Shown here: one piece after another, positions 7,989 to 29,076 of the stretch
Layout of the letters: the number at the start of each line of letters is the position of its first letter
Numbering within the stretch: the stretch's first letter is position 1
Made by a program: the position numbers and the translations under genes
Assembly (NCBI GenBank): GCA_041946805.1
Contig: JBHGBC010000067.1
Location: 1 to 29,076 of the forward strand
Source: a bacterium
GTDB lineage: Bacteria; Hinthialibacterota; Hinthialibacteria; Hinthialibacterales; Hinthialibacteraceae
Reading direction: 5' to 3'
Length of the DNA: 29,076 nt
Notes under the pieces: model-generated
Database searches by the model: none
What the model was told of the DNA's origin: nothing
What the model saw: only the letters and a program-made list of their open reading frames with translations

Positions 7989-8422
7989 GGGAGATTCTCT
8001 CCTCTTCGTCCGGATGTCCCTACCGGGGGAGTTTGGAGGGAACGCGGCGTCCGATCAAGAGGAATCCCAAGGTATTGATTTCTCTCAGGAAATCCAATCC
8101 TCTTCCAGAATCTTACGGGAGTGGCCGGACGGGACACATGCCTTCGCCCGGGGGCCATCCAACTGAGTTCTTAAACCTTCCATACTCCCTGCCGATCATT
8201 ATGCTGATTTCGAATGGGACTATCTGCCCTCCTCCAGACTTCTTCCGGAGGGGATGGGGCAGATTGTCGTTTTAGCCGGAATGGCCGGGTATCGGCAATA
8301 TTTCGTGAGCCAGGGAGTTCGGTTGTTTTCAGGTTGATTGGCATTTCATGTCACGGTTTTGGAATGATCCTCTTCTTGGATCCCCCCTCGCTCGAGGGAC
8401 CACCACACGGAGTGTGTAAATA

Positions 8423-10279
8423 ATGTCCGTATCGGCAATTTGGCGGTTTCTCGCGGGGATTCTGATGGTAGTGAGTGTTCCGGGTGTGGGAGAGGCCTTG
8501 AATCCCATCGGTTCGGAAATCCGGCAGCGGAAAGTGGCCGTACTGAATCTGACCCAACGTAACCATGAATCTCCCGCCAATGTTTTTTCCCTGGAGCACG
8601 CGATGCAGGTTGCGGGAGTTCCCTACATGGTGACCACGGACGTAGCCGCCGCCTGCGAATCCCGGCTGGTTTTGATCACATCGGCCTTGCATCCCAACAC
8701 CTTGAGCGCGCCGGAAAAGAACCAGCTGGTGGAATACGTGTGGGACGGCGGCGTGCTGGTGGCGCCCAACATCCGCGATGTCTTTTTCTATCCCCTGTTC
8801 GGGATCAGCGGGTACGCGCAGGGAAAATTCCGGAGCCAGATGACCTGGCTTACCGCCAACTTTCCGGCGATGGGCCGCTGGATCGATGATCCCAACGAGA
8901 TCGTTATCCGGTTGAGCAATCCCGGTAAATATCCGGAAGGACTAACGACGCAATCGTATGTGTTGAATGGATCCAAGTCCTTGGCCGAATTTGACGACCG
9001 TGGGCCGGCGGTGACCCTCTACCCGTTCGGCCAGGGACAGGCCGTGGCCCTGGGCTTTTCGGTCAGCGATTTGATCTCGCGGAATTTGTTCAACAACGAT
9101 CTGGAAGCTCAACGCATCTATTCGAACGGCTTCGAACCGGCCACCGATACCTTGATCTTTTTCCTGCTCTCGCTGGCCGAGCAATATGTTCCCTATACCG
9201 TCCGGAAGCACACCAGCCCGGGGCGCAGCCGGTCCACGCTGATCCTGACCCATGATATCGACGCGACGAGCTCGATGAATAACATGCTCTATTTCGCCCG
9301 GGGGGAATCGCTGCGGAATATCCGCGCGACCTATTTCATCACCACCCGGTATTTCAGTGATTTTTTTTTCAAGCCTTATTACAACCCCGAAACGGTTGCG
9401 ATTGTCAACCGTCTGCTCGATTACGGCCAGGCGCTGGCCAGCCATACCGTCGGTCATTTCCTGGATTTCAACGTGATCGGTTACGGCGCTCCCGGCAACA
9501 CGAGGGAAAACTACAGTCCTTACTACAATGAGAACATGCAATCGGTGGGCGCCACGTTGTATGGCGAGTGCGAAGTCTCCAAACAGGTGCTCGAGGCCGA
9601 CACGGGAGTCTCCATCACGTCGTTCCGCGCCGGGCATTTGGTCACGCATAAATATCAGACCAATGTGTTGGACGCATTGGGATACTTGTATGATTCCTCC
9701 CTCAGCGCGAATGATATCCTGACCAATTTCCCCTATTTCATGTTTTTTGACAAATCCATCAATTCCCCTATATCGAACGTAATCGAAATTCCCCTCACGA
9801 TTTCGGATGTATATGGAGATGAATTCAACGAGTTGAATTACGAGGAGGCCGTCAATGTATGGCTGGATGTCATTGCGAGGAATAGGGCCAATTCCGCGCC
9901 GGCCGTGTTGTTGATCCACCCCACCAAACTCATCAAATACACGGCGCAAGAATTGCTGTTGGACAACCTGCCCCATGATGTTATCGTCATGGACATGGAT
10001 TCCTATGGGGATTTTTGGCGCCGGCGCCTCGTGTTGCCGTTTGAAACCGGCCTATCCGGCCAGACTCTGACCATTGCCTTTCAATCCCCGAAAGAAGAGA
10101 TCGATCCCCGCCTCAGTTTGACCATCCGCGGCGGGGCCCGGCTGGAGGAAATCCAAATCCTGTGGAATGGGAATCCGGTGTACTATTTTGATCTCGATCC
10201 CTGGACCGGGGACGACGTGATTGTATCCAACATTCACGTTCAGGAATTCGTGGGCGTGGAGGATTGGGCGCGGTATTGA
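8423..10279 (+). CDS. Secreted polysaccharide deacetylase (NodB/CE4-like) with N-terminal GATase-like domain
   Basis: Signal peptide (…VGEA); LTHDID, SHTVGH, SFRAG, YDSS, LLIHP motifs; ends VEDWARY. Confidence 0.8.
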   Translation: MSVSAIWRFLAGILMVVSVPGVGEALNPIGSEIRQRKVAVLNLTQRNHESPANVFSLEHAMQVAGVPYMVTTDVAAACESRLVLITSALHPNTLSAPEKNQLVEYVWDGGVLVAPNIRDVFFYPLFGISGYAQGKFRSQMTWLTANFPAMGRWIDDPNEIVIRLSNPGKYPEGLTTQSYVLNGSKSLAEFDDRGPAVTLYPFGQGQAVALGFSVSDLISRNLFNNDLEAQRIYSNGFEPATDTLIFFLLSLAEQYVPYTVRKHTSPGRSRSTLILTHDIDATSSMNNMLYFARGESLRNIRATYFITTRYFSDFFFKPYYNPETVAIVNRLLDYGQALASHTVGHFLDFNVIGYGAPGNTRENYSPYYNENMQSVGATLYGECEVSKQVLEADTGVSITSFRAGHLVTHKYQTNVLDALGYLYDSSLSANDILTNFPYFMFFDKSINSPISNVIEIPLTISDVYGDEFNELNYEEAVNVWLDVIARNRANSAPAVLLIHPTKLIKYTAQELLLDNLPHDVIVMDMDSYGDFWRRRLVLPFETGLSGQTLTIAFQSPKEEIDPRLSLTIRGGARLEEIQILWNGNPVYYFDLDPWTGDDVIVSNIHVQEFVGVEDWARY

Positions 10280-10512: not shown

Positions 10513-10782
10513 TTACTTGAGATAGGACCGCAGGATAGCCGCCACTTGCTCCAGGTCCTCGCGCTGAGCCGGATCCGCGGCCGCGCCAAGGTGTTCCCGG
10601 ACATGCCCCTCCAGCACTTCGGCCATCAAGCCATTCACCGCGCCCCGGATGGCGGCGATCTGCTGCAAGACCGCGGAACACGCGGTTTCCTGTTCCAGGG
10701 CTTTGAGTAACGCTTCCACCTGTCCCCGGATGCGCCGCGTCCGGATCAGCAGCTTCTTTTTGCCCGCGATCGTGTGAGCCAT
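10513..10782 (-). CDS. RcnR/DmeR-type (CsoR/RcnR/FrmR family) metal-sensing repressor, 89 aa
   Basis: MAHT…RRIRGQVEAL…C…QQIAAIRGAVNGLMAEVLEGHVREH; His3, Cys35, His60, His64 match the RcnR Ni/Co ligand pattern. True start ATG at 10782, not 11040. Confidence 0.9.
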   Translation of the reverse strand: MAHTIAGKKKLLIRTRRIRGQVEALLKALEQETACSAVLQQIAAIRGAVNGLMAEVLEGHVREHLGAAADPAQREDLEQVAAILRSYLK

Positions 10783-10806
10783 ACCGTATCCCCATTGCCA
10801 GGAATC

Positions 10807-10825
10807 TATACTGATGTATAGTATA
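10807..10825. promoter_or_regulatory. RcnR/DmeR-type operator between divergent genes
   Basis: TATACT-GATGTAT-AGTATA inverted repeat, i.e. TACT-N7-AGTA spacing as in the E. coli RcnR site; overlaps -10-like hexamers (TATAAT 10822-10827), TTGCCA at 10795-10800. Confidence 0.75.
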
Positions 10826-10861
10826 ATGCCAAATCCTTGGACTCCAAAGGCACCATACCGG

Positions 10862-11809
10862 ATGACCGTTCCCTTTTCGCTGGAATCCTGGCGCCACTCG
10901 CATGTCTTTGACGAAGGCAATCCCCTGGCCGAGAGAAACACCCGCTGGGCTGTCGCCCTCACTGCGCTGATGATGGCCGCCGAGATCACCGGCGGCTGGA
11001 TCTTCAACTCGATGGCCCTGCTGGCGGACGGCCTGCACATGAGCTCGCACGCCCTGGCGCTCGGACTGTCCGCCCTGGCCTACCTGGCGGCGCGCCGCTA
11101 TGCTCACGATCCGCGGTTTGCGTTTGGGACCTGGAAGATCGAGGTGCTGGGTGGCTATACCAGCGCCATTTTTTTAGTGTTGTTCGCCGGATTGATGCTG
11201 TTCCAGTCCGTCGAACGCCTGCTCGCGCCGATGCCCATCCACTACGACCGGGCCATCGTCATCGCCTTGGCGGGCCTGGCAGTCAATCTGGCCTGCGCCT
11301 GGCTGCTCCAGGACGGCCAGGGACACGGTCAGGGACACGGCCACGCCCACGCGCCGGCGAATCACCCGCGGCATCATGATTTGAACCTGCGTTCCGCCTA
11401 TCTCCACGTGGTTGCGGACGCGGCCACCTCGGTGCTGGCCATCTTCGCGCTGGTGGGCGGCAAGTACTGGGGCGCGCGCTGGCTCGATCCCGCCATGGGC
11501 ATCGTGGGCGCCGGGCTGGTTTCCGTGTGGGCCTACGGGTTGCTGCGCGATACCGGCCGGGTGCTGCTCGACGCCGAGATGGATGCGCCGGTGACGGAGG
11601 AAATCCGGGAACTCATCGCCGCCGCGCCGGTTCCGGCCGGCATCAGCGATCTGCACATATGGCGCGTGGGCAAGGGTAAATACGCGTGCGTCCTTTCCCT
11701 CGTCGCTCCGGGCGGCGTCACGCCGGATTATTTCAAACGGCGCTTGGGCGTGCACGAAGAGTTGGCGCATATTACCGTGGAGGTGAACGATCCGGCCTCC
11801 GCGCCGTGA
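10862..11809 (+). CDS. dmeF: CDF-family Co(II)/Ni(II) efflux transporter
   Basis: WRHSHVF N-terminus, SMALLADGLHMSSH, FAFGTWKIEVLGGYTSA, His-rich loop, HDLNLRSAYLHVVADAATS, DLHIWRVG. Start taken at ATG 10862 because 10814 lies inside the operator. Confidence 0.9.
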   Translation: MTVPFSLESWRHSHVFDEGNPLAERNTRWAVALTALMMAAEITGGWIFNSMALLADGLHMSSHALALGLSALAYLAARRYAHDPRFAFGTWKIEVLGGYTSAIFLVLFAGLMLFQSVERLLAPMPIHYDRAIVIALAGLAVNLACAWLLQDGQGHGQGHGHAHAPANHPRHHDLNLRSAYLHVVADAATSVLAIFALVGGKYWGARWLDPAMGIVGAGLVSVWAYGLLRDTGRVLLDAEMDAPVTEEIRELIAAAPVPAGISDLHIWRVGKGKYACVLSLVAPGGVTPDYFKRRLGVHEELAHITVEVNDPASAP

Positions 11810-11982: not shown

Positions 11983-13329
11983 TTATTCCACCGTGATGGA
12001 TGGTCCCATGATTTGATTGAACGCGATGTAGTTTTGGTAATGGTGAATGGAAACCCAATCCGCCAGGGGATCATCCCGCAGGCGGCGGTTGATTTCCCAG
12101 AGCACGGCGTTCATCCCGCCGGCCGTGGAATAATCCTGCGTCCGGGCGCCGATGGAGTAGCGGGTATTGTGACCGCGGGCAAGTGCGATAACCGGTGCGG
12201 CGTATTCCAGAATGGCGTCCGGCGTGGTTTTGGTATAGGCCATGATACTGACTTGGTTGACGGATCCGCAGAGTTGGTCCATGGCTCCGGAGTTGTATTT
12301 CACATAATACGGAGCCACATCCGCTTCGAGTGCCGCCTCCATATTCTCCGCGGCGATTTTCCACCGTGCTTCCGCATACATTTCCGCCAGCATTTGGATC
12401 CATGCGGCCCGGGTTTCCGGAGAGGCGCCGGTCCATTCGGATTGCGCTTCCGGCTCGATGTCCAGATGCAGTCCCGCGAAGCGTGCTTCCTCGGTGTATG
12501 ACCGATTCAACGCCGCCACGCGTTCGATCCAATTCAGCAATTGATACCGGTATTCGGAGTAGAACCAGCGCGTTGAACTGACCAGCGCGGAGGTTTCGAT
12601 CCCGCTGGCGCGCAATTTCGCGATCATCCCCGGCAGGAGTTCCAGCATCGCGGGCGTATTCAGGACCGTTTGGTTGGTGGAAAAGTACACTTTGCGGATT
12701 TGATACAGCAGGCAAGTATCGTGGAAAGCCTGAACGGCCGCCTCGCTCACCAGAATCTCCTCCTCGTTCCAAACCCAAACCGCGCAGTTCCGGCCGGCGT
12801 CCGCTTCCGGTGTGGGAGTGGCGGTCGGCGTGGCAGTGGGTTCCGGCGTCTCGGTGGGCTCCGCCGTGGGTGTGGGGGTCACCGTGGGCGTGGGAGTCGC
12901 GGTGGAGGTGGCGGTCGGCGCCGGCGGGGGAGGGGAAGTGGGTGTGTCCGTGGCCGTTGGGGTTGGTGATGGGAAAACCGTGGGCGTGGCAGTGGATGTG
13001 GAAGTATGTGTGGCTGTCGGGGTTGCTGCGGGATCCGGCCGGCCGGCAGGCGTCGGTGTGGATTTCTTTTTTCCCTTGGAGGTTGAAATGGGAGCGGCGG
13101 GATTCATGCTCTTATCCTGGGAACCGGCCGCCCCGATGGGGTCTGTCGCGCTGGAGATGGCCGGGGAGCTGAAGACCTCGGGGGGGATATCGAGCGGGAA
13201 CAGCATCGCTTGGGCGGAGCTTTTCCGGACGGGATAAGCCCAGCATAGGATTAACAGGATGGGAATCAATCCGCTCCGGTACTTCTGATGAAGACGGGGA
13301 AACGGGTATGGCGGTGAAAACGGTTTCAT
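11983..13329 (-). CDS. Secreted protein: Pro/Thr-rich linker plus GH18-like TIM-barrel domain
   Basis: RBS GGGAGGGG before ATG 13329; hydrophobic signal region; PT-rich stalk; AVWVWN…FAGLHLDIEPE…SIMAY…SIHHY domain. Confidence 0.75.
   Translation of the reverse strand: MKPFSPPYPFPRLHQKYRSGLIPILLILCWAYPVRKSSAQAMLFPLDIPPEVFSSPAISSATDPIGAAGSQDKSMNPAAPISTSKGKKKSTPTPAGRPDPAATPTATHTSTSTATPTVFPSPTPTATDTPTSPPPPAPTATSTATPTPTVTPTPTAEPTETPEPTATPTATPTPEADAGRNCAVWVWNEEEILVSEAAVQAFHDTCLLYQIRKVYFSTNQTVLNTPAMLELLPGMIAKLRASGIETSALVSSTRWFYSEYRYQLLNWIERVAALNRSYTEEARFAGLHLDIEPEAQSEWTGASPETRAAWIQMLAEMYAEARWKIAAENMEAALEADVAPYYVKYNSGAMDQLCGSVNQVSIMAYTKTTPDAILEYAAPVIALARGHNTRYSIGARTQDYSTAGGMNAVLWEINRRLRDDPLADWVSIHHYQNYIAFNQIMGPSITVE
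12805..13060 (-). repeat. Low-complexity Pro/Thr linker coding repeats
   Basis: Encodes TPTATHTSTSTATPT…PTATPTATPTP. Confidence 0.8.
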
Positions 13330-13580
13330 GACAGAGTCCCCTCCCGCGGCCGGGTTCATGAGTGATCCGCGCGGAACGCCGCGAAGAAGGGGGCTGCTCC
13401 GCCCGGCAGCCCTGCTGCCCGGTCCACGAATCCCGTGGAGGTGGGCCAGAAGCTTTGCGTCCCACCCTTTCGGATGGTTTGCCTTTCTCAGGCGTGAAAA
13501 CCGGTTGAGAGAAAAAATTACCTCATCGCTCTTCCCTCCGGCCGGATGGGGCCGGTTTCCTGCAAATCAGGGCAAAACAT

Positions 13581-13612
13581 AGATAAGAAAACTGCCAGAT
13601 AAGAAAACTGCC
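13581..13612. repeat. Perfect 16-bp tandem direct repeat
   Basis: AGATAAGAAAACTGCC x2. Confidence 0.9.
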
Positions 13613-13993
13613 TATTGCCGATCCGTCTGGGTTTTGGGGACCGGTACGAGCAAAAAGAGAGCCAAAAGAGAGTAAGCGAATTACAAGATTGGCGCTCTTG
13701 TAGTTTTGTAATATAAACATGTAAATGAAGTGGATTTTTCCGGGAACCGGATGGGTTTTCCTGCTCAAAAATCAAAGGTTAGGCGGGATGCGCCCGGGTG
13801 GTTTTTTCGGGTAGCGGTTCGGGAATGGCGATATGGAAAACGGCCGCTTACCGGCCCTGGGCCAGCGACTGTAATCCGAATGCGATTACAGTAACTGGCA
13901 TGGTTACACAGGGGACCGCCGGGTGGGATCGGCAGGATCCGCCGGCGTGGAATGCCGGATTTTCGATAATTTGCAGTGAGTATCCTATAATGC

Positions 13994-14023
13994 TTGACAA
14001 AAGGGTCCATGCCGATTTATAAT
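13994..14023 (+). promoter_or_regulatory. Consensus sigma70-type promoter
   Basis: TTGACA (13994-13999), 18-bp spacer, TATAAT (14018-14023), followed by a very AT-rich tract; points toward the GT2 operon. Confidence 0.65.
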
Positions 14024-14683
14024 TCATAAATTAATTTTTATATAATTTTGCTTATAAACTCGGAAGAGTATTTTTAATAATTGGTTTATCCAGAAGCAAT
14101 AGTAATATATTTTGAAATATCATGCATGAATTATTCGGATATCCGGTACGAGTGGAATCGTTCTCGGAACCCTATCCATGGGGAAAGCTGGGATTGGGAA
14201 GAACGGCAAACCGTTCCAGGAACCTGATATCTCCTTATTAAAGTTTTGTAATACTAACGGCGAAAATAGGACCAAAGCAGGAAACGGCGAAGGCCGGCTG
14301 TTTCATAGGGCTTTCATTCGATGAGTTATCTTATGTCCTTTTTTCAGGGGATTTGGATACGTCATGGCAGGGACGGAGGGAGAAGTTGGTGTGACACCCC
14401 CATGGATAACTCGATGGTTCTGAAATGGTTAAAACCCTCATTGGAGCCAGGAAGCCTTTCATCCCGTGTATTGTCCATGGGAGACTCCACCTTATTTGTC
14501 CATCCATCCTTCTCGTGGAATTGAAGACGGCGCTTTTTTCCGGCAGCCATGGGCGCCCGGCGGCGGTCCGGGAACAATCGAGAAGCCGGGTCTCTGGATT
14601 ATGAGAGGAAGGGGAGTTTTTTTTCATTCGCGCATGGCATCGGATACCCGCCTCGCCGGCCGGTATCGGGAAGAGGACCAATC

Positions 14684-16141
14684 ATGACGGGCACCCTGAC
14701 GGAGAAAGAATTCAAGTTCACGCTCCTGGCGAATCCAAAATCCAAACTGGTTCCCGATGGCATCGAAACTCTCGTACCCGGGGTGGACTTGATCCAGGGG
14801 GAGGCTATCGATGTAGCCTCGTTTCTGGCCACGGACGTTTTTTTGATTTGCTTCGACGATCCGGAATGGGGATGGAGCCATGTCAAGGCGCTGCGGCAGG
14901 ATGAACATCAGCTGATCAAGCCCGTCGCCTCCCTCTCTCTGGATCCGCTGGAAGGTCCGGAGGATATGCTCGATGAGCAAATCCTGCTGTCGGGGGACCG
15001 GCTCCAGGCGGGCAAACAACTCGGCACCTTGAAGCGGCTCTCGCAGGAGGCGGTCCAATTCCCCATCACGCCCGAGGGAATCGAGGAATGCAAGCGCCGG
15101 GAGATCTTGTTTTTGAGTTACATAGCCGTCCGGGCGGCCCGGGGCAACGGCCTGCGGCCGCAAGTGGACATCGCCGCCTCGACCGGATACACCTACCCGC
15201 TCGTATCGCTGTTTCTCCAGTATCCGTGCGTTAAGGCGCATGAAGTGCTGGACAGCTGGGAGAAGGCCAAGCTGCTGCAGGGTGAAATCGTGGACCGGAT
15301 CAATCTCTGTCCCCAGTGCCGGCATTACAACCTCAATTTCCGGGAAGTGTGCCCCCTGTGCGGGTCGGGCCGGATTCAGGAAGAGTCGACCATTCACCAT
15401 TTTTCGTGCGGGTATATCGGCTTTGAACGCGATTACACCCAGGGGATGAAATGGATCTGCCCCAAGTGCGGGAAGGATTTGCGGCATATCGGAGTGGATT
15501 ACGACAAGCCGGTGGACAACATCTGGTGTTCGGACTGCCACGCGAATTTCTCCGAACCCGCCGTCCAGTGTTTTTGCCTGCATTGCCGGAAAATATCCAC
15601 TCCCGCGGATTTGGTACTGCGGCCGATCTACCGCTATCACCTGACCAACATCGGCCTCCGGTACGCGCGGAACGGAGTGCTGCCCGAGTTCGGCTTCATC
15701 GACCTGCTCAAGGACAATTTCAACCTGTACGACGTCAATGTTTTCAGGGAATTCCTGCGGATCGAGGTCCTGCGGTGCCGGCGGTACAAGTTTGATTCCT
15801 CGTTGATGGTGATCCAGGTGGAAAATTTCGGAGAACTCTGGGAGCGGATGGGGCTGGATTTCGTCATCCGGATGCGCAAGGAATTCATCGACTTGTTGAA
15901 ACGGGACCTCCGCAATACCGATCTCCTCGCGGTTCTGGGTGGCAATGAAATCGCCTTGCTGCTGACCAACACGCCGATTCAGCAGACCGATATGATTTTC
16001 GACCGGCTGAAGCGGTATTTCGACTCCGTCTTCGAGCACCAACTCCGGTTGAATGGCGGCCGGTACGACTTGTCGAGGGAGAATGCCGGCCTGGAAAGGT
16101 TTTTGACGGATGGTAGCCGCCCTGCTGCAGAGCCTTTTTGA
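14684..16141 (+). CDS. Multi-Zn-ribbon (TackOD1-like) protein with C-terminal degenerate GGDEF domain; probable c-di-GMP receptor
   Basis: RBS GAGG before ATG 14684; CPQC, CPLC, HFSC, CPKC, CSDC, CLHC; RNTD (RxxD I-site) five residues before GGNEI. Confidence 0.8.
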   Translation: MTGTLTEKEFKFTLLANPKSKLVPDGIETLVPGVDLIQGEAIDVASFLATDVFLICFDDPEWGWSHVKALRQDEHQLIKPVASLSLDPLEGPEDMLDEQILLSGDRLQAGKQLGTLKRLSQEAVQFPITPEGIEECKRREILFLSYIAVRAARGNGLRPQVDIAASTGYTYPLVSLFLQYPCVKAHEVLDSWEKAKLLQGEIVDRINLCPQCRHYNLNFREVCPLCGSGRIQEESTIHHFSCGYIGFERDYTQGMKWICPKCGKDLRHIGVDYDKPVDNIWCSDCHANFSEPAVQCFCLHCRKISTPADLVLRPIYRYHLTNIGLRYARNGVLPEFGFIDLLKDNFNLYDVNVFREFLRIEVLRCRRYKFDSSLMVIQVENFGELWERMGLDFVIRMRKEFIDLLKRDLRNTDLLAVLGGNEIALLLTNTPIQQTDMIFDRLKRYFDSVFEHQLRLNGGRYDLSRENAGLERFLTDGSRPAAEPF

Positions 16142-17414
16142 GTTCATCGGGCAATTGACGTGGGAACGGTTCTTCCGGACCTTCTGGTATTATCTCGTCC
16201 TGGACTTCCCCCGTTACATTCTGTTCGATTTCGTCGTGGTCTTCCTGATCTTCAAGCAACGGCTGCGGGCCGCCGTGTCCCGCCGCCAGGCCTTGTTCGA
16301 TCATCAGTTGCAAAACCATCCTCCCCTCGTTTCCGTGATTGTGCCCGCCTTGAACGAGGCGGCTACCATTCCTTATACCATTCAAACCCTGCTCGAACAA
16401 TCGTACAAGAACCTGGAAATCATCCTGGTGGACGATGGATCGGATGACCATACGGCCCGGATTGTCCAAGTCTTCGATCCCGCGCGGGTGAAATATTTCC
16501 GGCTGGCGGTGCGGTCGGGCAAAGCCGCGGCCTTGAATTTCGGATTGCGGCGCGCACGGGGCGAGTTCATCGTTTTCATCGATTCGGATTCGACCCTGGA
16601 ACGGGACGCGGTGTACGAGGTTTTGCGGCCGTTCTCCCATCCCAAGGTGGGGGCGGTGGCCGGCAATCTCAATCCCCGCAACGCGGGGGACAATTTGTTG
16701 ACCACGCTGCAGACGGTCGAGTATCTGTTCACCATCACCGTCGGGCGCCTCGTGCGGGCCCGGGCGAACATCCTCTCCATCATCTCCGGCGCGTTCGGCG
16801 CGTTCCGCCGCTCGGCGATCGATTTGGATTTCATCGGCGGGCAGGAGCCGGGGCCGGGCAACGATTCCGATATCACGATCCGGGTCCGGAAGGTGGGATA
16901 CCGGATCGAGTTCGTCCCGGAAGCCATCTGCCGGACGGACGTGCCCATCCGGCTGCTCCCGTTCTTTCGGCAACGCTGGCGCTGGGACCGCAACCTGATC
17001 AAGAACCGCCTGCGCAAGCACCGGGATGTGTTCAACATCTTCGCGCATCATTTCAATTTGTACAATTTTTTCTCCTTCCTTGATTTGATTTTCTTTCATT
17101 GCGTGCTGGCGGTGCTGGCCCCGTTGTATATCATCGACATACTGGCCAACTACCGCCGGGACGCGCTGATCATTTTTCTGATGAATTATTTCATATACAC
17201 CTTTTCCTCCATGCTGGAATTGACCGCCGCCTCCTATATCACCCGGCGGTGGAGCTACATGCAATTTATCCCCTATCTGTTCATCTACAACTTCTATCAC
17301 AAGATGATGAAGTTTTCCCGGTTGTTCGGATACGTTCAGGAACTGTTTTTCTTCTATTCCTATCACGATCCCTTCGCGCCGAAAAAAGTCAGGGAAAGGA
17401 TATTGCGATGGTAG
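16110..17414 (+). CDS. Processive GT2 polysaccharide synthase (PgaC/IcaA/HasA-like)
   Basis: N-terminal TM, VIVPALNE, DDGS, GKA, DSD, GND, QRWRW, C-terminal TM helices; overlaps upstream gene by 32 nt. Confidence 0.9.
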   Translation: MVAALLQSLFEFIGQLTWERFFRTFWYYLVLDFPRYILFDFVVVFLIFKQRLRAAVSRRQALFDHQLQNHPPLVSVIVPALNEAATIPYTIQTLLEQSYKNLEIILVDDGSDDHTARIVQVFDPARVKYFRLAVRSGKAAALNFGLRRARGEFIVFIDSDSTLERDAVYEVLRPFSHPKVGAVAGNLNPRNAGDNLLTTLQTVEYLFTITVGRLVRARANILSIISGAFGAFRRSAIDLDFIGGQEPGPGNDSDITIRVRKVGYRIEFVPEAICRTDVPIRLLPFFRQRWRWDRNLIKNRLRKHRDVFNIFAHHFNLYNFFSFLDLIFFHCVLAVLAPLYIIDILANYRRDALIIFLMNYFIYTFSSMLELTAASYITRRWSYMQFIPYLFIYNFYHKMMKFSRLFGYVQELFFFYSYHDPFAPKKVRERILRW

Positions 17415-19495
17415 CGCGGTGCGTCCTCGTCATGGCGGCTTTCCTGGGCTTCGTTCGCCCCGCGGGAACCGCGGCGTTGTATCAATTGGACGACCTGGAG
17501 GCTGTGGCCCTCGGCGCCGATCCGGAGCTCGAAAGCGCCTATCACACCCTGGGGGCTCTGATCGCCGAAGCCGACGGCGTGGATTTACGGTACTACCCGT
17601 TCCTCACGCTGCGGTATTCGCATTATCCCGGATTCGGCAGCATCGAGGGGGATGAGATCGGAACGAATCACTGGTTCTCGGCGCGGCTGCGCTGGGATCT
17701 TCTGGATTGGTTCCAGGTCAAGCCCGAGCAGGAAAAGGTCCGCCGGGCGGGGGTGGAAGATCAACGGATCAAGATTCAAATGCTGGAAGCCAAGGTCCTC
17801 CTGGAGTGCCGGACCCGGTATCTTGATCTCCTTGCGCAGAAAATCCAACGGGACTCGTATGCCCGGCAGAACGCTCTCCAGGAGGAAATTCTCCAGGTCT
17901 TGCAGGAACGGGCCCGGCTGAAGCGCGCCCTGCCCGTGGATGTCCTCCTGGTGGAAAAGGAGATCCAGGTTTCCCGCCAATATGCCCGGATGTACCGCGA
18001 GCATTTCGAAAAGAACCGGCGCTTGTTCGCGCAAGTCCTGGGCCTGGCCGAGGAAGACATCGACTGGGAACGGATCGCGTACACCCAGGAAGAACTCCCC
18101 GAGGCTCCGTTGATGGAAGCCGCCCGGGAACGATCACTGGACCGCCGGCGGCTCGATCAGCAGCTGCGGCGCGTCGAGTCGCAGGAACGGGCTGCGATGT
18201 ACGAGAACTTGGACATCGAACCGTTCGCCGGCTACCGCTACACCGAAAGCGACTACTCGGGCGCGCAAAGCGGCCTGGAAGCCGGTATCCAGGTGAACAT
18301 TCCCCTCTCCATTTTCCAGCGGGACGGCCTCCGGGACCGGATCGTCGCGGCGCAACGGAACGCCGTGGCCAAACAAGAGGAAGCGTTGGACTGGGACCTC
18401 CAGAGAACGGTCCGCGATCTGTACCGGAGTTATGAGGAGACCGGGATTCAAATCCTGGATTACGATCTCGAACTCCAAATCCTGCAGGAGAAGATCCAAA
18501 TCGAGCAGACCATCGCCGATCTCTCCGGCGCCGCGCCCGGAGTCAATCTCGAGATCCTGCGGTTGCAGGTGCAGGCTGAGGATACGCGCATGCGCCGGCA
18601 GCTCGAGGAATACGATCAATGGAAGGATTACTTCCGGCTGCTGAACCTGGCGGGCGCGCAGGACGCTTACGATATTTACGCCCGGGAGGCCGCCCGCGAG
18701 TATCCCCCGCTGGCTCTCTGGGTCTGGAGCCAGGGCGATTGGTTCCGCGCCATCGAGTCCGTCCCCCTTTTCAAACGGAATTGCGCGCGGCGGAACGTGA
18801 AACAGGTCTTTTTGTCTCTCAGCCAGGCCAGCCTGAAGGAAGAAGCGTTCCGCCGCTGGCTGCCCTACCTGGTGAAGGAACTGCACACGGCCGGAATCCA
18901 GGTGTCGGCCCTGATCAGCGAACACTCCTGGATCGATCCGGACAAGCGGCCGGTCTTGCTCCAGCATGTCCGGAATATCCTCGATTGGCAAAACACTTTT
19001 TCCAACCGGGAACGGCTGGATGGGATCCATCTGGATCTCGAACCGCAGGCGTTGCCTCAATGGCAGGACGATCCTCGATCCCTGCTTTCCCGGTTGGTGG
19101 ACACGGTGGCCGAAGTCCGCCGGGTGATCCAGGATTATCCTTCCGCCCCGCGGCTGGAATGTGATGTCATCCCGGCCTACGCGGAAATCGATTCCAACGC
19201 GCTGTACACCCTCATCCGCCACGCCGGGGCGATTCATATCATGACCTACGGGATTCTCAATGCCGAGCTCCTCGCCGGACGGACGCGGGAGATCGTGGCC
19301 CGGGTCCGGAACGATCCCGCCAAGCAGGTCACCATTGGGCTCAACGCGAAGGATTTCAAAAGCCATGAGAAATTCGTGAAGATGCTCTGGGAGGTGGACA
19401 AGCTATACCGGACCGCGGAAACCGGTCCGGCCGTTCCGGTTGTCTCCGTCCATGATTATTCCGGTTTCCTGGAACTCGAAGGTACCCGACGGTGA
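17408..19495 (+). CDS. TolC-like outer membrane efflux protein fused to a C-terminal GH18-like barrel
   Basis: ATG 17408 overlapping GT2 stop; signal peptide; two OEP-like helix/strand repeats (ARLRWDLLD, GIQVNIPLSIF); from 18710 LALWVWS…LDGIHLDLEPQ…HIMTY…SVHDY. Confidence 0.75.
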   Translation: MVARCVLVMAAFLGFVRPAGTAALYQLDDLEAVALGADPELESAYHTLGALIAEADGVDLRYYPFLTLRYSHYPGFGSIEGDEIGTNHWFSARLRWDLLDWFQVKPEQEKVRRAGVEDQRIKIQMLEAKVLLECRTRYLDLLAQKIQRDSYARQNALQEEILQVLQERARLKRALPVDVLLVEKEIQVSRQYARMYREHFEKNRRLFAQVLGLAEEDIDWERIAYTQEELPEAPLMEAARERSLDRRRLDQQLRRVESQERAAMYENLDIEPFAGYRYTESDYSGAQSGLEAGIQVNIPLSIFQRDGLRDRIVAAQRNAVAKQEEALDWDLQRTVRDLYRSYEETGIQILDYDLELQILQEKIQIEQTIADLSGAAPGVNLEILRLQVQAEDTRMRRQLEEYDQWKDYFRLLNLAGAQDAYDIYAREAAREYPPLALWVWSQGDWFRAIESVPLFKRNCARRNVKQVFLSLSQASLKEEAFRRWLPYLVKELHTAGIQVSALISEHSWIDPDKRPVLLQHVRNILDWQNTFSNRERLDGIHLDLEPQALPQWQDDPRSLLSRLVDTVAEVRRVIQDYPSAPRLECDVIPAYAEIDSNALYTLIRHAGAIHIMTYGILNAELLAGRTREIVARVRNDPAKQVTIGLNAKDFKSHEKFVKMLWEVDKLYRTAETGPAVPVVSVHDYSGFLELEGTRR

Positions 19496-20622
19496 AAATC
19501 AAATCGCTTCGCAAGCGGAATCTCACGATTTTCAAGACGGATCCCAGCGGCCAAATCCGCCGGATATCGATCGGCAAGGCGGTTTTTTTCGTGGTGTTGT
19601 TCTACATCGTCTTCGCCGTGAGCCAGTGGGTATATTTGTCCACCTGCTATGTAACCGGCATGGGATACGTGGAAGCGGAGTCGGTGTTTGTGCAGACGCT
19701 GCTGGTCTCCCGGATCGCGGACATTGACTGCCAGGTGCTGGATCCGGTCGCCAAGGGGCAAGCCCTGGTTTATCTGAATAACGCGCGGATCGAGGCCGAA
19801 ATCGACACGCAGAAGCATGAGATTGAATACAAACGCCTGGGTTCCGATGTCAAAAACCAGGAAGACGCGATCGCCTACCAGCAAAAACTGATCGATTTGG
19901 AAAACAATGCCAAAAAACTGGCGCAGCGGCTGAAAAACGCCCGTGCGGAAGAATCCCACTACCAAGGCGAATACGACCGGGCCATGAAAATGGTGCAAAG
20001 CAGTGTCGCCACGCTGGATGACGCGGAAAAGATCAACGAAAAATTGTTGGCGGCCCGCCGGAACGCTTCCGCCCTCGCCGCCGAATACGAACTCGAAAGG
20101 CGCCGCGTCCAGGATTACAAAAACAGCCAGGGCACGGTGCCTGAACTCCCTGAAACCGATGTAACGTTGCAACTGTATCAGAATTATTGGCGCAGTTTGT
20201 TGAACGAATCCATCCTCTACGCGCCCATGGACGGTGTCGTGGCCGAGATCTTCAAGCACGACGGCGAAGTGGTTAAAGTCGGGGAATCCGTCCTGAAAAT
20301 CTATGACTTGAACAAGAAATGCGTGCGCACCCAGTTCGACGGCAAGGACCGACTCCTGATCCAGGAAGGCGTGATCGTCAGCGTCGAGTTTGAAAGCCGC
20401 CGGAAGGCCGGCGGCATCATCCGCCAGGTCTTCCCCTCCGCGCACCCCATGCGGGACGAATACCGGAAAACCTATGTCCCGCCGGAAAATTTCGTCCTCG
20501 CGGACATTCAGATTTTAAGTGAAGATATCCAGCCCGAAATCATCAATACCAAGGCTTCCGTCTATTTGAAAAAGCCCAACTTCATCAACCGGTTGATCGA
20601 TTCCTGGATTCTGGGCGTCTAG
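19492..20622 (+). CDS. HlyD-family membrane fusion/periplasmic adaptor protein
   Basis: GTGA overlap with upstream stop; single TM; lipoyl halves (VAKGQALV, LYAPMDGVV…GEVVKVGESVL) around a long coiled coil. Confidence 0.85.
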   Translation: MKIKSLRKRNLTIFKTDPSGQIRRISIGKAVFFVVLFYIVFAVSQWVYLSTCYVTGMGYVEAESVFVQTLLVSRIADIDCQVLDPVAKGQALVYLNNARIEAEIDTQKHEIEYKRLGSDVKNQEDAIAYQQKLIDLENNAKKLAQRLKNARAEESHYQGEYDRAMKMVQSSVATLDDAEKINEKLLAARRNASALAAEYELERRRVQDYKNSQGTVPELPETDVTLQLYQNYWRSLLNESILYAPMDGVVAEIFKHDGEVVKVGESVLKIYDLNKKCVRTQFDGKDRLLIQEGVIVSVEFESRRKAGGIIRQVFPSAHPMRDEYRKTYVPPENFVLADIQILSEDIQPEIINTKASVYLKKPNFINRLIDSWILGV

Positions 20623-20758: not shown

Positions 20759-21880
20759 TTAGGCTCCGGTCTGTGGCTGGAGCGGCCTGATCCGCTCGAG
20801 CAGCCAGGCGTCGAACTGCTCCTGGCGGTGCATGGTCCAGGCGGCGTGGATGACATGGGACCGCGCGGCGAGTTCGGACAACCGGGATTCGTGGGGGATC
20901 AGGCGGATCGCGTCTTTCTCGGTGAACAGCACCGGGTGTTGCCGTGATTTCAGGGCGAAGATCCGGATATCATTGTCCGCGAACCAATAGTGATCCGGAT
21001 AACGCAGGTGTTCCTGTACACGCAGCCCCAGCGCGCGGGCCTGTTTTTCCAGACGCTCCGGCGATCCGATTCCCGAAACCAGGATGACCGGCGTTCCGGT
21101 GAAATGTTTGACCGGGATCCCGGGCGTGCCCCGCTGTTTCATCCAGGTTTCGAGGGGAATCAGGTCGATCCATTCCAAGGTCCCGGAGAAGACCGGGCAA
21201 TACTCGGGAAGAGGGAGCCTTTTCGCGGGGGACGAAGGCGCGCCGAGAAAAACCACGGCGTCCGCGCGGCTCAAGGCCGGCAGCGGTTCCCGTAACGGGC
21301 CATACGGCAGGCAATGCCCGTTGCCCTCGGGCCTCTCGGCGTCGAGCAGAACGAAATCGAGGTCGCGTTGGACCTGGAGATGTTGAAAACCGTCGTCCAG
21401 CAGCACGATGTCGCATTCCCGCTTGGCGGTGAGGGTGTGGATGAGCGCGCCCCGGTCCGCCCCAATGCCGATGGGCGTTGGCGTGTACCGGCTAAGCAGC
21501 GCGGGTTCGTCTCCATACGCGGTGATTGAATGAGGATGGAGCGAACCGGAGCGAAGGATGAGTGGCGAGGAGGTTTGGCGGCCGTATCCCCGTAAAACGA
21601 TGGCCGGGTGGAATCCGTTGTATTGCAGCCAGTCGGCCAGATACAGTGTGAAGGGTGTTTTCCCCACTCCCCCCACGGTCAGGTTGCCCACGGAGATCAC
21701 CGGAACCGGGAACCGCCTTCTCCGAAAGTAATCCTTCTCGTAGAGCGCGCGGCGCAGGCGGGCGGCGCGGCCATACAGCCATGCGAGCGGGAGCAAAACC
21801 GGCGCCAGGCCGCGGAGCGGACCGCGGTGGTGATAGGCCAGATCGTGCCACGCGTGCGGGAGGGTGTTCCCCCGGTTCAT
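20759..21880 (-). CDS. lpxK: Tetraacyldisaccharide 4'-kinase
   Basis: PVISVGNLTVGGVGKTP, RGYG, GDEP, LLDDGFQH, LPYGPLREP, YPDHY, TEKD. Confidence 0.96.
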   Translation of the reverse strand: MNRGNTLPHAWHDLAYHHRGPLRGLAPVLLPLAWLYGRAARLRRALYEKDYFRRRRFPVPVISVGNLTVGGVGKTPFTLYLADWLQYNGFHPAIVLRGYGRQTSSPLILRSGSLHPHSITAYGDEPALLSRYTPTPIGIGADRGALIHTLTAKRECDIVLLDDGFQHLQVQRDLDFVLLDAERPEGNGHCLPYGPLREPLPALSRADAVVFLGAPSSPAKRLPLPEYCPVFSGTLEWIDLIPLETWMKQRGTPGIPVKHFTGTPVILVSGIGSPERLEKQARALGLRVQEHLRYPDHYWFADNDIRIFALKSRQHPVLFTEKDAIRLIPHESRLSELAARSHVIHAAWTMHRQEQFDAWLLERIRPLQPQTGA

Positions 21881-28791: not shown

Positions 28792-29076
28792 TCAGTACAA
28801 TTCCCACCTCTCGGGAACCAGACCCGAGGCTACCGGCGCCAAGGTCAGAATCCCCCACTGGGTTTCGTTATCCCATCCGCCATCGACATCTCCGTTCCAC
28901 CGGTATTGAGCGTCCCGGTTGTCCTGATTCGGAGTGTCACGGTCATCGATGGCGATGTCAAAGCCGATTTTGGACACGAATCCGGCCGTGGATTGACGGA
29001 ATTCGATGATCCAGCCGGTGCCATCCGCTTTCACCGCGCCCTTGCTTTCAATATCACCCGCGGGAGCACTGGCCAC
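28792..29076 (-). CDS. C-terminal fragment of a CBM9-like (sugar-binding) domain protein (partial)
   Basis: GWIIEF…IGFDIAIDDRD…W…WGILTL pattern typical of CBM9/DOMON-like domain ends; terminates VPERWELY; runs off window end. Confidence 0.65.
   Translation of the reverse strand: MASAPAGDIESKGAVKADGTGWIIEFRQSTAGFVSKIGFDIAIDDRDTPNQDNRDAQYRWNGDVDGGWDNETQWGILTLAPVASGLVPERWELY

Follow-up and report, generated by a model that had tools for sequence, protein, structure and literature searches.

A predicted c-di-GMP-gated exopolysaccharide operon combining a GT2 synthase, an HlyD-type adaptor and a barrel-fused TolC-fold protein

The window (the whole 29,076-nucleotide stretch of bacterial DNA analysed here) probably encodes a synthase-dependent exopolysaccharide (EPS) system of the GT2-adaptor-TolC type, gated by c-di-GMP; we infer its gating, polymer and export steps from computed genes, folds, co-occurrence and conserved motifs. 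Four overlapping genes at 14684-20622, defined by gene calls and Pfam, encode a regulator, a GT2 synthase, a TolC-fold/barrel fusion and an HlyD-type adaptor (Table 1), with overlaps of 32, 7 and 4 bases between successive genes. An earlier note on this DNA had claimed the same four-gene set, and its coordinates, domains and overlaps were all reproduced. The operon holds no ABC or RND gene, as had also been claimed, since the next gene past the adaptor, lpxK (20759-21880), runs on the opposite strand.

Table 1. Features of the operon and its surroundings in the window
Feature	Position	Strand	Basis and remarks
Polysaccharide-deacetylase-like protein, 618 aa, hydrophobic N-terminus	8423..10279	+	weak PF01522 match below cut-off
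Stand-alone barrel paralogue	11983..13359	-	likely start 13329, 448 aa; barrel behind Pro/Thr-rich linker
c-di-GMP-I riboswitch aptamer	13401..13492	-	Rfam RF03167, 64.8 bits, cut-off 59; clan CL00126
Candidate operon promoter TTGACA-18-TATAAT	13994..14023	+	consensus match only; AT-richer intergenic stretch
TackOD1 regulator gene	14684..16141	+	Pfam, AlphaFold model, fold search, conservation
GT2 synthase gene	16110..17414	+	Pfam, curated models, tree
TolC-fold/barrel fusion gene	17408..19495	+	Pfam, AlphaFold, fold search
HlyD-type adaptor gene	19492..20622	+	Pfam, hydropathy

Relatives were collected by profile searches in place of single-sequence and word-based scans; a single-sequence GT2 scan of GTDB contigs (two full-length relatives only among 76 loci) and a word-based search with the TolC fusion (three proteins only) were too insensitive. 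TackOD1 was carried by 14/300, 8/251, 4/201, 6/201, 18/201 and 2/61 genomes of the respective sets. Among 34 GTDB TackOD1 loci with full flanks, GT2 and adaptor were found in 27, together with TolC in 18 and as part of the complete four-gene set in 12, and 7 were without GT2 or MFP; all four genes were present in 30/30 full-flank metagenome loci, a set that had been ordered by similarity to the query and includes near-duplicates. The module genes occur in at least three orders, and for regulator, GT2 and adaptor the pairwise identities rise and fall together (Spearman 0.69-0.78, 75 loci). Methylocystis iwaonis, Phyllobacterium zundukense and Roseibium aggregatum are among its cultivable carriers. 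On the points by which the earlier note proposed to judge the system, the genes were syntenic across many lineages, no ABC, RND or MFS family turned up among the 72 operon neighbours scanned (of 95), and no characterised operon in the open-access literature matched gene for gene. No description of the present gene set was found in open-access full text; subscription papers or supplements could contain one.

An ordinary type I or efflux channel, in which adaptor and TolC work with an ABC or RND pump encoded elsewhere and the GT2 is just co-regulated or glycosylates the cargo, is very unlikely. Such a channel would suit one locus (L233) where the TackOD1 protein is accompanied by an ABC transporter plus MFP and no GT2, and another (L093) where a divergent MFS-OMF-HlyD operon adjoins the module. 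The adaptor, however, keeps with the GT2 despite changes in gene order, loss of TolC and loss of the hairpin, the hydrolase-like barrel fused to TolC points to a glycan cargo, and QxxRW together with membrane segments marks a processive, self-translocating enzyme.

The HlyD-type adaptor (376 aa; HlyD_3, E 6e-8), encoded with the synthase in a pump-free operon, has a basic cytoplasmic tail, one membrane helix at 25-43 and a hairpin of 148 residues separating the lipoyl halves. In the favoured GT2-adaptor-TolC system it would be anchored next to the synthase and dock by this hairpin on the TolC trimer, polymerisation supplying the driving force instead of a pump. The hairpin is 11-16 residues long in four loci, as against 96-217 in the remaining 70. 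Two of these four loci lie in 99%-complete genomes with no OEP by PF02321 and two family profiles, and in both the adaptor still adjoins the synthase despite the lost docking hairpin; the hairpin-less loci belong to one clade and were thus counted as one event. In three genomes whose locus has three genes and whose adaptor has the full hairpin, 6-16 OEP matches were found outside the locus. An operon without TolC would borrow a housekeeping TolC, and in a genome without any TolC the hairpin would be lost.

The fusion protein (695 aa) joins an OEP domain (PF02321, E 2e-12) to a C-terminal TIM barrel (about 18700-19492). Its AlphaFold model (pLDDT 90.8) was matched to TolC by fold search (Z 23.9, rmsd 4.6, 387 aligned), so that fold and profile matches both indicate a TolC-fold outer-membrane channel encoded in the operon. 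Neither this barrel nor the stand-alone one has a Pfam match, PF00704 included, and one relative matches PF00704 at E 3e-4, below the cut-off. The fused barrel shares the hydrolase TIM-barrel fold with Cwp19 (GHL10; Z 18.9) and a GH18 (Z 17.6), with ties among several hydrolase families. By sequence it belongs to the same family as PDB 10YV of Cellulomonas fimi (‘putative GH97’, E 1.5e-19), from which it differs by its fusion to TolC; no activity for 10YV was found in the open-access literature. It carries an H-x-D-x-E motif (H-L-D-[IVL]-E in 62/80), with His in place of one Asp of DxxDxDxE, the GH18 catalytic motif. Matches in the ESM Atlas were to unnamed clusters only; GH18/DUF4015 clusters, at 0.88-0.89, serve as leads. 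The earlier note had pointed to GH18-like motifs; the fold is a hydrolase TIM barrel tied among several GH families, and GH18 activity is a suggestion.

The barrel is missing in 20/34 full-flank GTDB loci and is thus not essential. In 10/12 divergent barrel fusions the N-terminal part was unrecognised by Pfam, and a profile of the divergent fusions found no TolC in the PDB; they were accepted as putative divergent TolC fusions indirectly, through a full-length profile match to the present family (597 columns, E 8e-54). The termini of TolC lie in the periplasm, so the barrel would sit there outside the tunnel, where it may trim or clear chains that miss the conduit.

The synthase (434 aa) carries D109, D158xD160, D252 and Q288-R-x-R-W292 (QRWRW at 288-292), has one hydrophobic segment near the N-terminus and about three near the C-terminus, ends after the membrane segments and is without a PilZ domain by Pfam. 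The catalytic D, DxD, D and QxxRW are retained in 94-96 of 96 GT2s, which share the motif G-P-G-[LE]-D-[GL]-D at the catalytic base and, in a quick tree without a hyaluronan synthase, group in a clade separate from PgaC/IcaA, NodC, BcsA and BgsA (SH-aLRT 96.4); hyaluronan synthase was compared through PDB sequence matches, which were weak (E 1e-10). The enzyme would polymerise a UDP-sugar and move the chain over the inner membrane, N-acetylhexosamine being slightly favoured as the sugar. A prediction of the complex of GT2, adaptor residues 1-75 and TackOD1 protein scored 0.01 (mark 0.32), which speaks neither for nor against such a complex.

PgaC/IcaA and NodC are the nearest curated models, with similar length and topology and 30-32% identity, as the earlier note had it in calling the GT2 PgaC-like, but the scores fall far below the cut-offs, and the GlcNAc polymer derived from this likeness and from the GH18-like motifs stays at the level of a suggestion. 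A PNAG synthase was rejected (164.9 bits against a cut-off of 422.3, outside the clade, no pgaABD or icaBCD partners), as were NodC (130.8 bits against 550, outside the clade, no nodAB alongside) and a BgsA/BcsA-type beta-glucan synthase (separate clade, without the C-terminal c-di-GMP-binding domain). Xanthomonas xagABCD and the sfz system of iron oxidisers were set apart by comparing their architecture, as given in the available published text, with Pfam content (no EpsE-like N-terminal domain or BcsB-like neighbour here).

The size and topology of the GT2, nearer to NodC and PgaC (identities of 29.7% and 31.7% along most of the sequence) than to BcsA, would also agree with a short oligosaccharide or glycolipid, such as a NodC-like signal or anchor, leaving through the adaptor and TolC in place of a long matrix polymer. 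The operon is without a TPR scaffold or polymer porin, and TolC channels usually pass small molecules and unfolded proteins. We nevertheless judge a short product unlikely: the scanned neighbours included neither a pump nor any tailoring gene of the Nod type (acyl-, methyl- or other), the accessory genes at module loci (deacetylase-like and nucleotide-sugar enzymes) are typical of polymer loci, matrix polymers are typically controlled by c-di-GMP, and BgsAB-TolC exports a polymer according to the available text on that system.

The regulator (485 aa, cytoplasmic) is a predicted c-di-GMP receptor. It comprises a receiver-like (pseudo-receiver) domain at about 8-128, which the earlier note had missed, a TackOD1 zinc-ribbon domain at about 138-320 (PF18551, E 2e-54) and a degenerate GGDEF domain at about 339-485 (PF00990, E 6e-9) with RxxD at 410-413. 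Its AlphaFold model (pLDDT 87.8) matched a REC fold at Z 12.8 and a GGDEF fold at Z 14.1 (rmsd 2.8, 138 aligned); no match was listed for the TackOD1 middle domain, for which searches with the whole model are a poor test. GG[DE]EF is intact in 0/102 relatives and reads GGNEI here, so that the motif of an active diguanylate cyclase is absent. RxxD is kept in 84/102, which with the GGDEF fold makes the protein PelD-like at the level of sequence and fold; R410 is absent in 16/102, the arginine loss marking a Bacteroidota-side subgroup. PelD is a membrane-bound degenerate GGDEF receptor with RxxD, in a system that uses GT4 and the PelB porin; the present regulator differs in being soluble and in having a zinc-ribbon domain. 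Binding of c-di-GMP to the RxxD of the catalytically dead GGDEF would switch on the neighbouring synthase, the TackOD1 protein filling the role of PilZ in BcsA and Alg44 and of PelD in Pel.

The system may make an EPS without the TackOD1 protein being a c-di-GMP-gated activator of the synthase; this protein could instead have a structural role, or regulate in response to phosphorylation or some other signal, its GGDEF being vestigial. The available text of PMC5847659 presents TackOD1 as an output domain in response regulators of archaea and assigns it no function, and archaeal TackOD1 proteins were found without the module; some members have canonical-looking receivers and two-component neighbours, and the full RxxD is missing in 18/102. 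The retention of RxxD while the catalytic motif is wholly scrambled, the invariance of D413 across a 75-row alignment and the diguanylate cyclase, HD or EAL genes flanking some loci make this rather unlikely.

The claim of a tripartite GT2-MFP-TolC conduit gains from synteny and the absence of a pump, but the idea is not new, having been proposed, in the available texts, for XcsAB-TolC and BgsAB-TolC. BgsAB glucan production in Sinorhizobium meliloti needs tolC, and a tripartite complex was proposed (available text of PMC13438883). That mixed-linkage beta-glucan system likewise has a pump-free GT2 and HlyD-type adaptor and is activated by c-di-GMP (predicted for the present operon); BgsA, however, has seven predicted membrane segments and its own C-terminal c-di-GMP-binding domain, and tolC is an unlinked housekeeping gene (same text), whereas the present 434-aa GT2 (24.6% identity with the presumed BgsA across 289 columns) has a separate TackOD1-GGDEF receptor and a dedicated, barrel-fused TolC inside the operon. 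The cyanobacterial XcsA-XcsB-TolC model of cellulose secretion (Maeda et al. 2018, via the available text of PMC12430437 and PMC8892547) also combines synthase, HlyD-like adaptor, TolC and a glycan hydrolase (XcsC) under c-di-GMP control (predicted for the present operon). As far as these texts describe it, XcsA is a PilZ-bearing cellulose synthase, XcsC a separate endoglucanase and tolC unlinked, and the model is without experimental validation, its genes not lying in one operon (PMC12430437); the present genes form one overlapping operon. In the alginate system Alg44 is the MFP-like partner of a GT2 (available text of PMC8892547); it bears PilZ and exit is via AlgK/E, unlike the separate soluble receptor and TolC-fold exit found here.

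The GT2-adaptor-TolC export principle has thus been proposed previously, and the present gene family appears undescribed. It is an even call whether the operon represents a widespread, undescribed EPS machine with its whole envelope-spanning conduit in one operon, comprising a new GT2 clade, perhaps with a HexNAc- or HexNAc-uronate-containing polymer, a soluble c-di-GMP receptor of a new kind (a first function for TackOD1) and the first TolC to carry its own glycosidase, which would belong to a new hydrolase family. That a glycosyltransferase can take the place of the pump in a tripartite TolC system is so far a proposal: in the available texts, the cyanobacterial model is called unvalidated partly over its scattered genes (PMC12430437), and the support for rhizobial BgsAB is genetic, its TolC being a shared one. 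With the synthase, the adaptor, a dedicated TolC and the receptor all encoded in a single operon of 6 kb, and with natural variants that lack TolC and the hairpin, the pump-replacement model can be tested directly. The locus further points to a likely function for TackOD1, to a new family of hydrolases and perhaps to a new biofilm polymer; TackOD1 occurs in a few percent of the genomes sampled across several phyla.

Outside the four genes, a sigma-70 consensus (12/12) that points toward the operon and was not in the earlier note was found at 13994-14023; promoter-like sites number 3 against a shuffle mean of 4.5, which is no excess over shuffled sequence. The deacetylase-like protein is a possible accessory part of the system, and its homologues adjoin the module in L175 and L210 only (2/142 other loci). 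A full-length GGDEF match is also present elsewhere in the source genome and, with the riboswitch of the stand-alone barrel gene, gives the operon a c-di-GMP context. The stand-alone barrel shares 25% identity with the TolC-fused barrel (E 2e-31). The earlier note had called this divergent protein a secreted barrel: the barrel is present, but a hydropathy scan did not confirm a secretion signal (no 19-residue segment at or above 1.6). It had also been counted with the system; in a same-genus genome the gene and its riboswitch lie on a different contig from the module, so that it was rejected as a core part and is better seen as accessory and not stably linked. The riboswitch, overlooked earlier, sits in the leader of this gene; when folded, the leader was not unusually stable (z -0.89) and no expression platform stood out. 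A riboswitch was rejected as a general feature of the module, as a scan of 8 other loci with the module gave none; this one is kept before the barrel orthologue in the same-genus genome G001 (68.5 bits).

The module at 14684-20622 is real, widespread and coherent, and is predicted, with fair confidence, to be a synthase-dependent exopolysaccharide system of the GT2-adaptor-TolC type. The four overlapping genes claimed in the earlier note were recovered on one strand, with overlaps of 32, 7 and 4 bases. Pfam assigned to them, in order, TackOD1 with a weak GGDEF match (the regulator), GT2, an outer-membrane efflux protein (OEP) whose C-terminal third carried no annotation, and an HlyD-type adaptor. 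Housekeeping or unrelated genes flank the operon (downstream lpxK, kdtA and a GT4 gene on the other strand, upstream a cation-efflux gene).

Features around the operon in the window
Feature	Position	Strand	Remark
Deacetylase-like protein, 618 aa	8423-10279	+	homologues adjoin the module in 2/142 other loci
Divergent small metal-repressor-like ORF and cation-efflux gene (PF01545)	10513-11809		between deacetylase-like gene and stand-alone barrel gene
Stand-alone barrel gene	11983-13359	-	Pro/Thr linker + barrel
c-di-GMP-I aptamer	13401-13492		leader of stand-alone barrel gene; 64.8 bits
Sigma-70 candidate	13994-14023		perfect consensus (consensus match only)
995-aa protein	24633-27620	-	hydrophobic N-terminus; no Pfam match above cut-off

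Genomes were selected with TackOD1 as the only criterion; it exceeded the cut-off in 3/61 relatives, in 14/300 genomes of the class of an Enterobacterales genome (one further genome unscored), in 8/251, 4/201, 6/201, 18/201 and 2/61 genomes of five further groups, and in 0/14 control genomes. Among the 54 resulting loci (window included, short contig G180 omitted), GT2 was found in 41, the adaptor in 38, OEP in 29 and the glycoside-hydrolase-like TIM barrel in 23, using GT2, adaptor and divergent-OEP profiles that were built from these same loci, so that thresholds were our own, and with divergent OEPs assigned by one profile comparison. The neighbourhood search proposed in the earlier note bore out the linkage: in the 34 loci flanked on each side by 4.5 kb or more, GT2 and adaptor occurred together in 27, with OEP as well in 18, and all four parts in 12. 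Several gene orders were seen (regulator-GT2-TolC-adaptor, TolC-adaptor-regulator-GT2 and GT2-regulator-TolC-adaptor). For metagenomes, the best 80 of 573 loci by likeness to the query were used, near-duplicates included; all four parts were present in 30/30 full-flank loci, fused in 29. Ten of 22 matched plasmid records were examined: regulator-GT2-adaptor occurred in 6/7 bacterial plasmids, the seventh being cut by the record end. GT2 was absent near TackOD1 in two haloarchaeal records; in a third, a short TackOD1 gene was accompanied by a GT2 that falls outside the family clade. Exceptions to linkage were four loci with TackOD1 alone (L121, L212, L213 and L229), one with an adaptor and no detected GT2 (L224), and L233, where a TackOD1-GGDEF protein (8203-10137) precedes an ABC transporter and adaptor without GT2; this regulator may act in a type I secretion locus as well.

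The operon has no ABC or RND transporter, and none was seen among the scanned neighbours of the module elsewhere in the family. Loci with both GT2 and adaptor numbered 100; in or against their blocks lay 95 additional genes, and the 72 scanned included no ABC, RND or MFS transporter. The other 23 were mostly cluster-mates of scanned genes, five being reading frames that cover a divergent MFS efflux operon of L093.

In 96 distinct full-length GT2s, D109, D158, D160, D252 and Q-R-x-R-W were each kept in 94-96, and the family motif at the catalytic base is G-P-G-[LE]-D-[GL]-D. In a quick maximum-likelihood tree (72 rows: 64 selected loci of the family and 8 references, several of the latter on long branches, hyaluronan synthase not among them), a branch with support 96.4 separated the family GT2s and one Sinorhizobium medicae gene from PgaC, IcaA, NodC, BcsA, a Bacillus fusion GT2, a haloarchaeal GT2 and a presumed BgsA. 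The last was assigned by its position beside an adaptor gene in a pSymB record that carries no annotation. The S. medicae gene is adjoined by an adaptor and a TackOD1 fragment; on this plasmid (L241, 6004-8595) the family GT2 and adaptor are followed by only 109 aa of TackOD1, possibly a decayed or split module copy in a model rhizobium.

Export of the GT2-adaptor-TolC kind had been proposed before and is still poorly proven, and the module would be a new form of it. In published work, tolC is needed for the BgsAB glucan and a tripartite complex is proposed (PMC13438883), the XcsAB-TolC model put forward by Maeda et al. 2018 is described and called unvalidated (PMC12430437, PMC8892547), and Alg44 has an MFP-like domain (PMC8892547). 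The module would work in the same way as BgsAB-TolC and XcsAB-TolC, yet its synthase clade, its receptor and the content of its operon set it apart from both. No published description of its gene set was found in open-access text.

A hairpin between the lipoyl halves of an adaptor docks on TolC; this stretch measured 96-217 residues in 70/74 adaptors and 11-16 in four, whose loci form one clade in the quick tree and so count as one event. Two of the four belong to genomes G057 and G1234 (99% complete), in which no OEP was found by PF02321 and both family profiles (one search without positive control). Three genomes with a three-gene locus and full hairpin (G195, G114 and G296) have 6-16 PF02321 matches elsewhere. 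Hairpin loss fits an adaptor with GT2 as its putative inner partner and a hairpin serving TolC.

The claimed TolC-hydrolase fusion was recovered in a predicted structure (pLDDT 90.8) of the 695-aa protein minus its first 20 residues: a complete TolC protomer (Z 23.9, rmsd 4.6, 387 aligned) is followed by a hydrolase-like TIM barrel of ambiguous family, whose best fold matches, Cwp19 (Z 18.9), a putative fucosidase (Z 18.2) and GH18 (Z 17.6), score little higher than many further hydrolase families. A sequence search with the barrel family matched PDB 10YV (E 1.5e-19), titled a putative GH97, on which no publication was found in open-access text. A barrel search gave 439 cluster representatives, and a TolC-like N-terminal part matching the window TolC was present in 32 of the 149 listed; H-L-D-[IVL]-E was present in 62/80 barrels from the loci. 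Since TolC termini face the periplasm, the C-terminal barrel should sit there, outside the tunnel, where it might clear or trim chains.

The AlphaFold model of the regulator (pLDDT 87.8) comprises a receiver-like domain, a TackOD1 domain and a GGDEF fold. In 102 distinct full-length relatives with a GT2 neighbour, RxxD was kept in 84 (R410 in 86, D413 in 98), E361, R364 and R367 were all present in 54, and GG[DE]EF occurred in none; such conservation would be expected from a receptor, predicted here to be one for c-di-GMP, and not from a cyclase. PMC5847659 presents TackOD1 as an output domain of archaea whose function is obscure. In three related loci (L214, at 9280-9726, L216 and L217), the TolC-barrel gene is succeeded by one for a small PilZ protein, and the contigs showed no adaptor.

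The GlcNAc-containing polymer proposed earlier survives as hints of N-acetylhexosamine, the window GT2 scoring far below cut-off against the PgaC/IcaA (164.9 bits, cut-off 422) and NodC (130.8 bits, cut-off 550) models. These hints are that UDP-GlcNAc is the substrate of the enzymes closest to it among curated models and in the tree, that deacetylase-like genes adjoin some loci, and that seven loci carry a nucleotide-sugar dehydrogenase gene (best named model, all sub-cut-off, in four scanned: TviB-type UDP-GlcNAc dehydrogenase in three, UDP-ManNAc dehydrogenase in one). On this sequence evidence, a HexNAc-containing polymer is slightly favoured. The window's deacetylase-like protein has a homologue immediately 3' of GT2 in L175 (E 3e-98) and another, at a distance of two genes, in L210 (E 2e-91).

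The divergent barrel protein, counted in the earlier note as part of the system, appears from its sequence and location to be a c-di-GMP-regulated paralogue (25% identity to the TolC-fused barrel) and not a core part, and it may act on the same polymer. In a same-genus genome, the operon locus shares only 14675-20579 with the window (75% identity) between differing flanks, and the stand-alone barrel gene with its riboswitch is on another contig. The window aptamer has A where the best-scoring model (GGC-variant) has G, which we take to be the canonical c-di-GMP form. Five c-di-GMP-I-type aptamers exceeded the cut-off in the window's genome, and two other GGDEF matches were found, one full-length. 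The remaining four aptamers (contigs C267:7161, C272:52327, C246:32632 and C270:30687) include some with variant residues in the binding loop, and at least three sit before proteins with export-like N-termini.

Eleven loci (e.g. L126:6149-7417, L130:16182-17369, L202:3314-5254) have an unnamed lipoprotein-like family within or just after the module, LVIVD-like (ESM Atlas) and in some members with a C-terminal DUF4114. A larger variant in L135, L137 and L152 combines, in a single run, a TPR protein, deacetylase-like genes, split OEP and barrel, adaptor, regulator, GT2 and unknown genes. In the window, the small metal-repressor-like ORF presumably resembles RcnR/CsoR. An element of ~220 bases (locus L006, 12850-13075) has dozens of copies in the window's genome at 74-81% identity. 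The 995-aa protein ends in a short motif similar to the ends of the deacetylase-like protein and of 28792-29076, perhaps a lineage-specific sorting signal.
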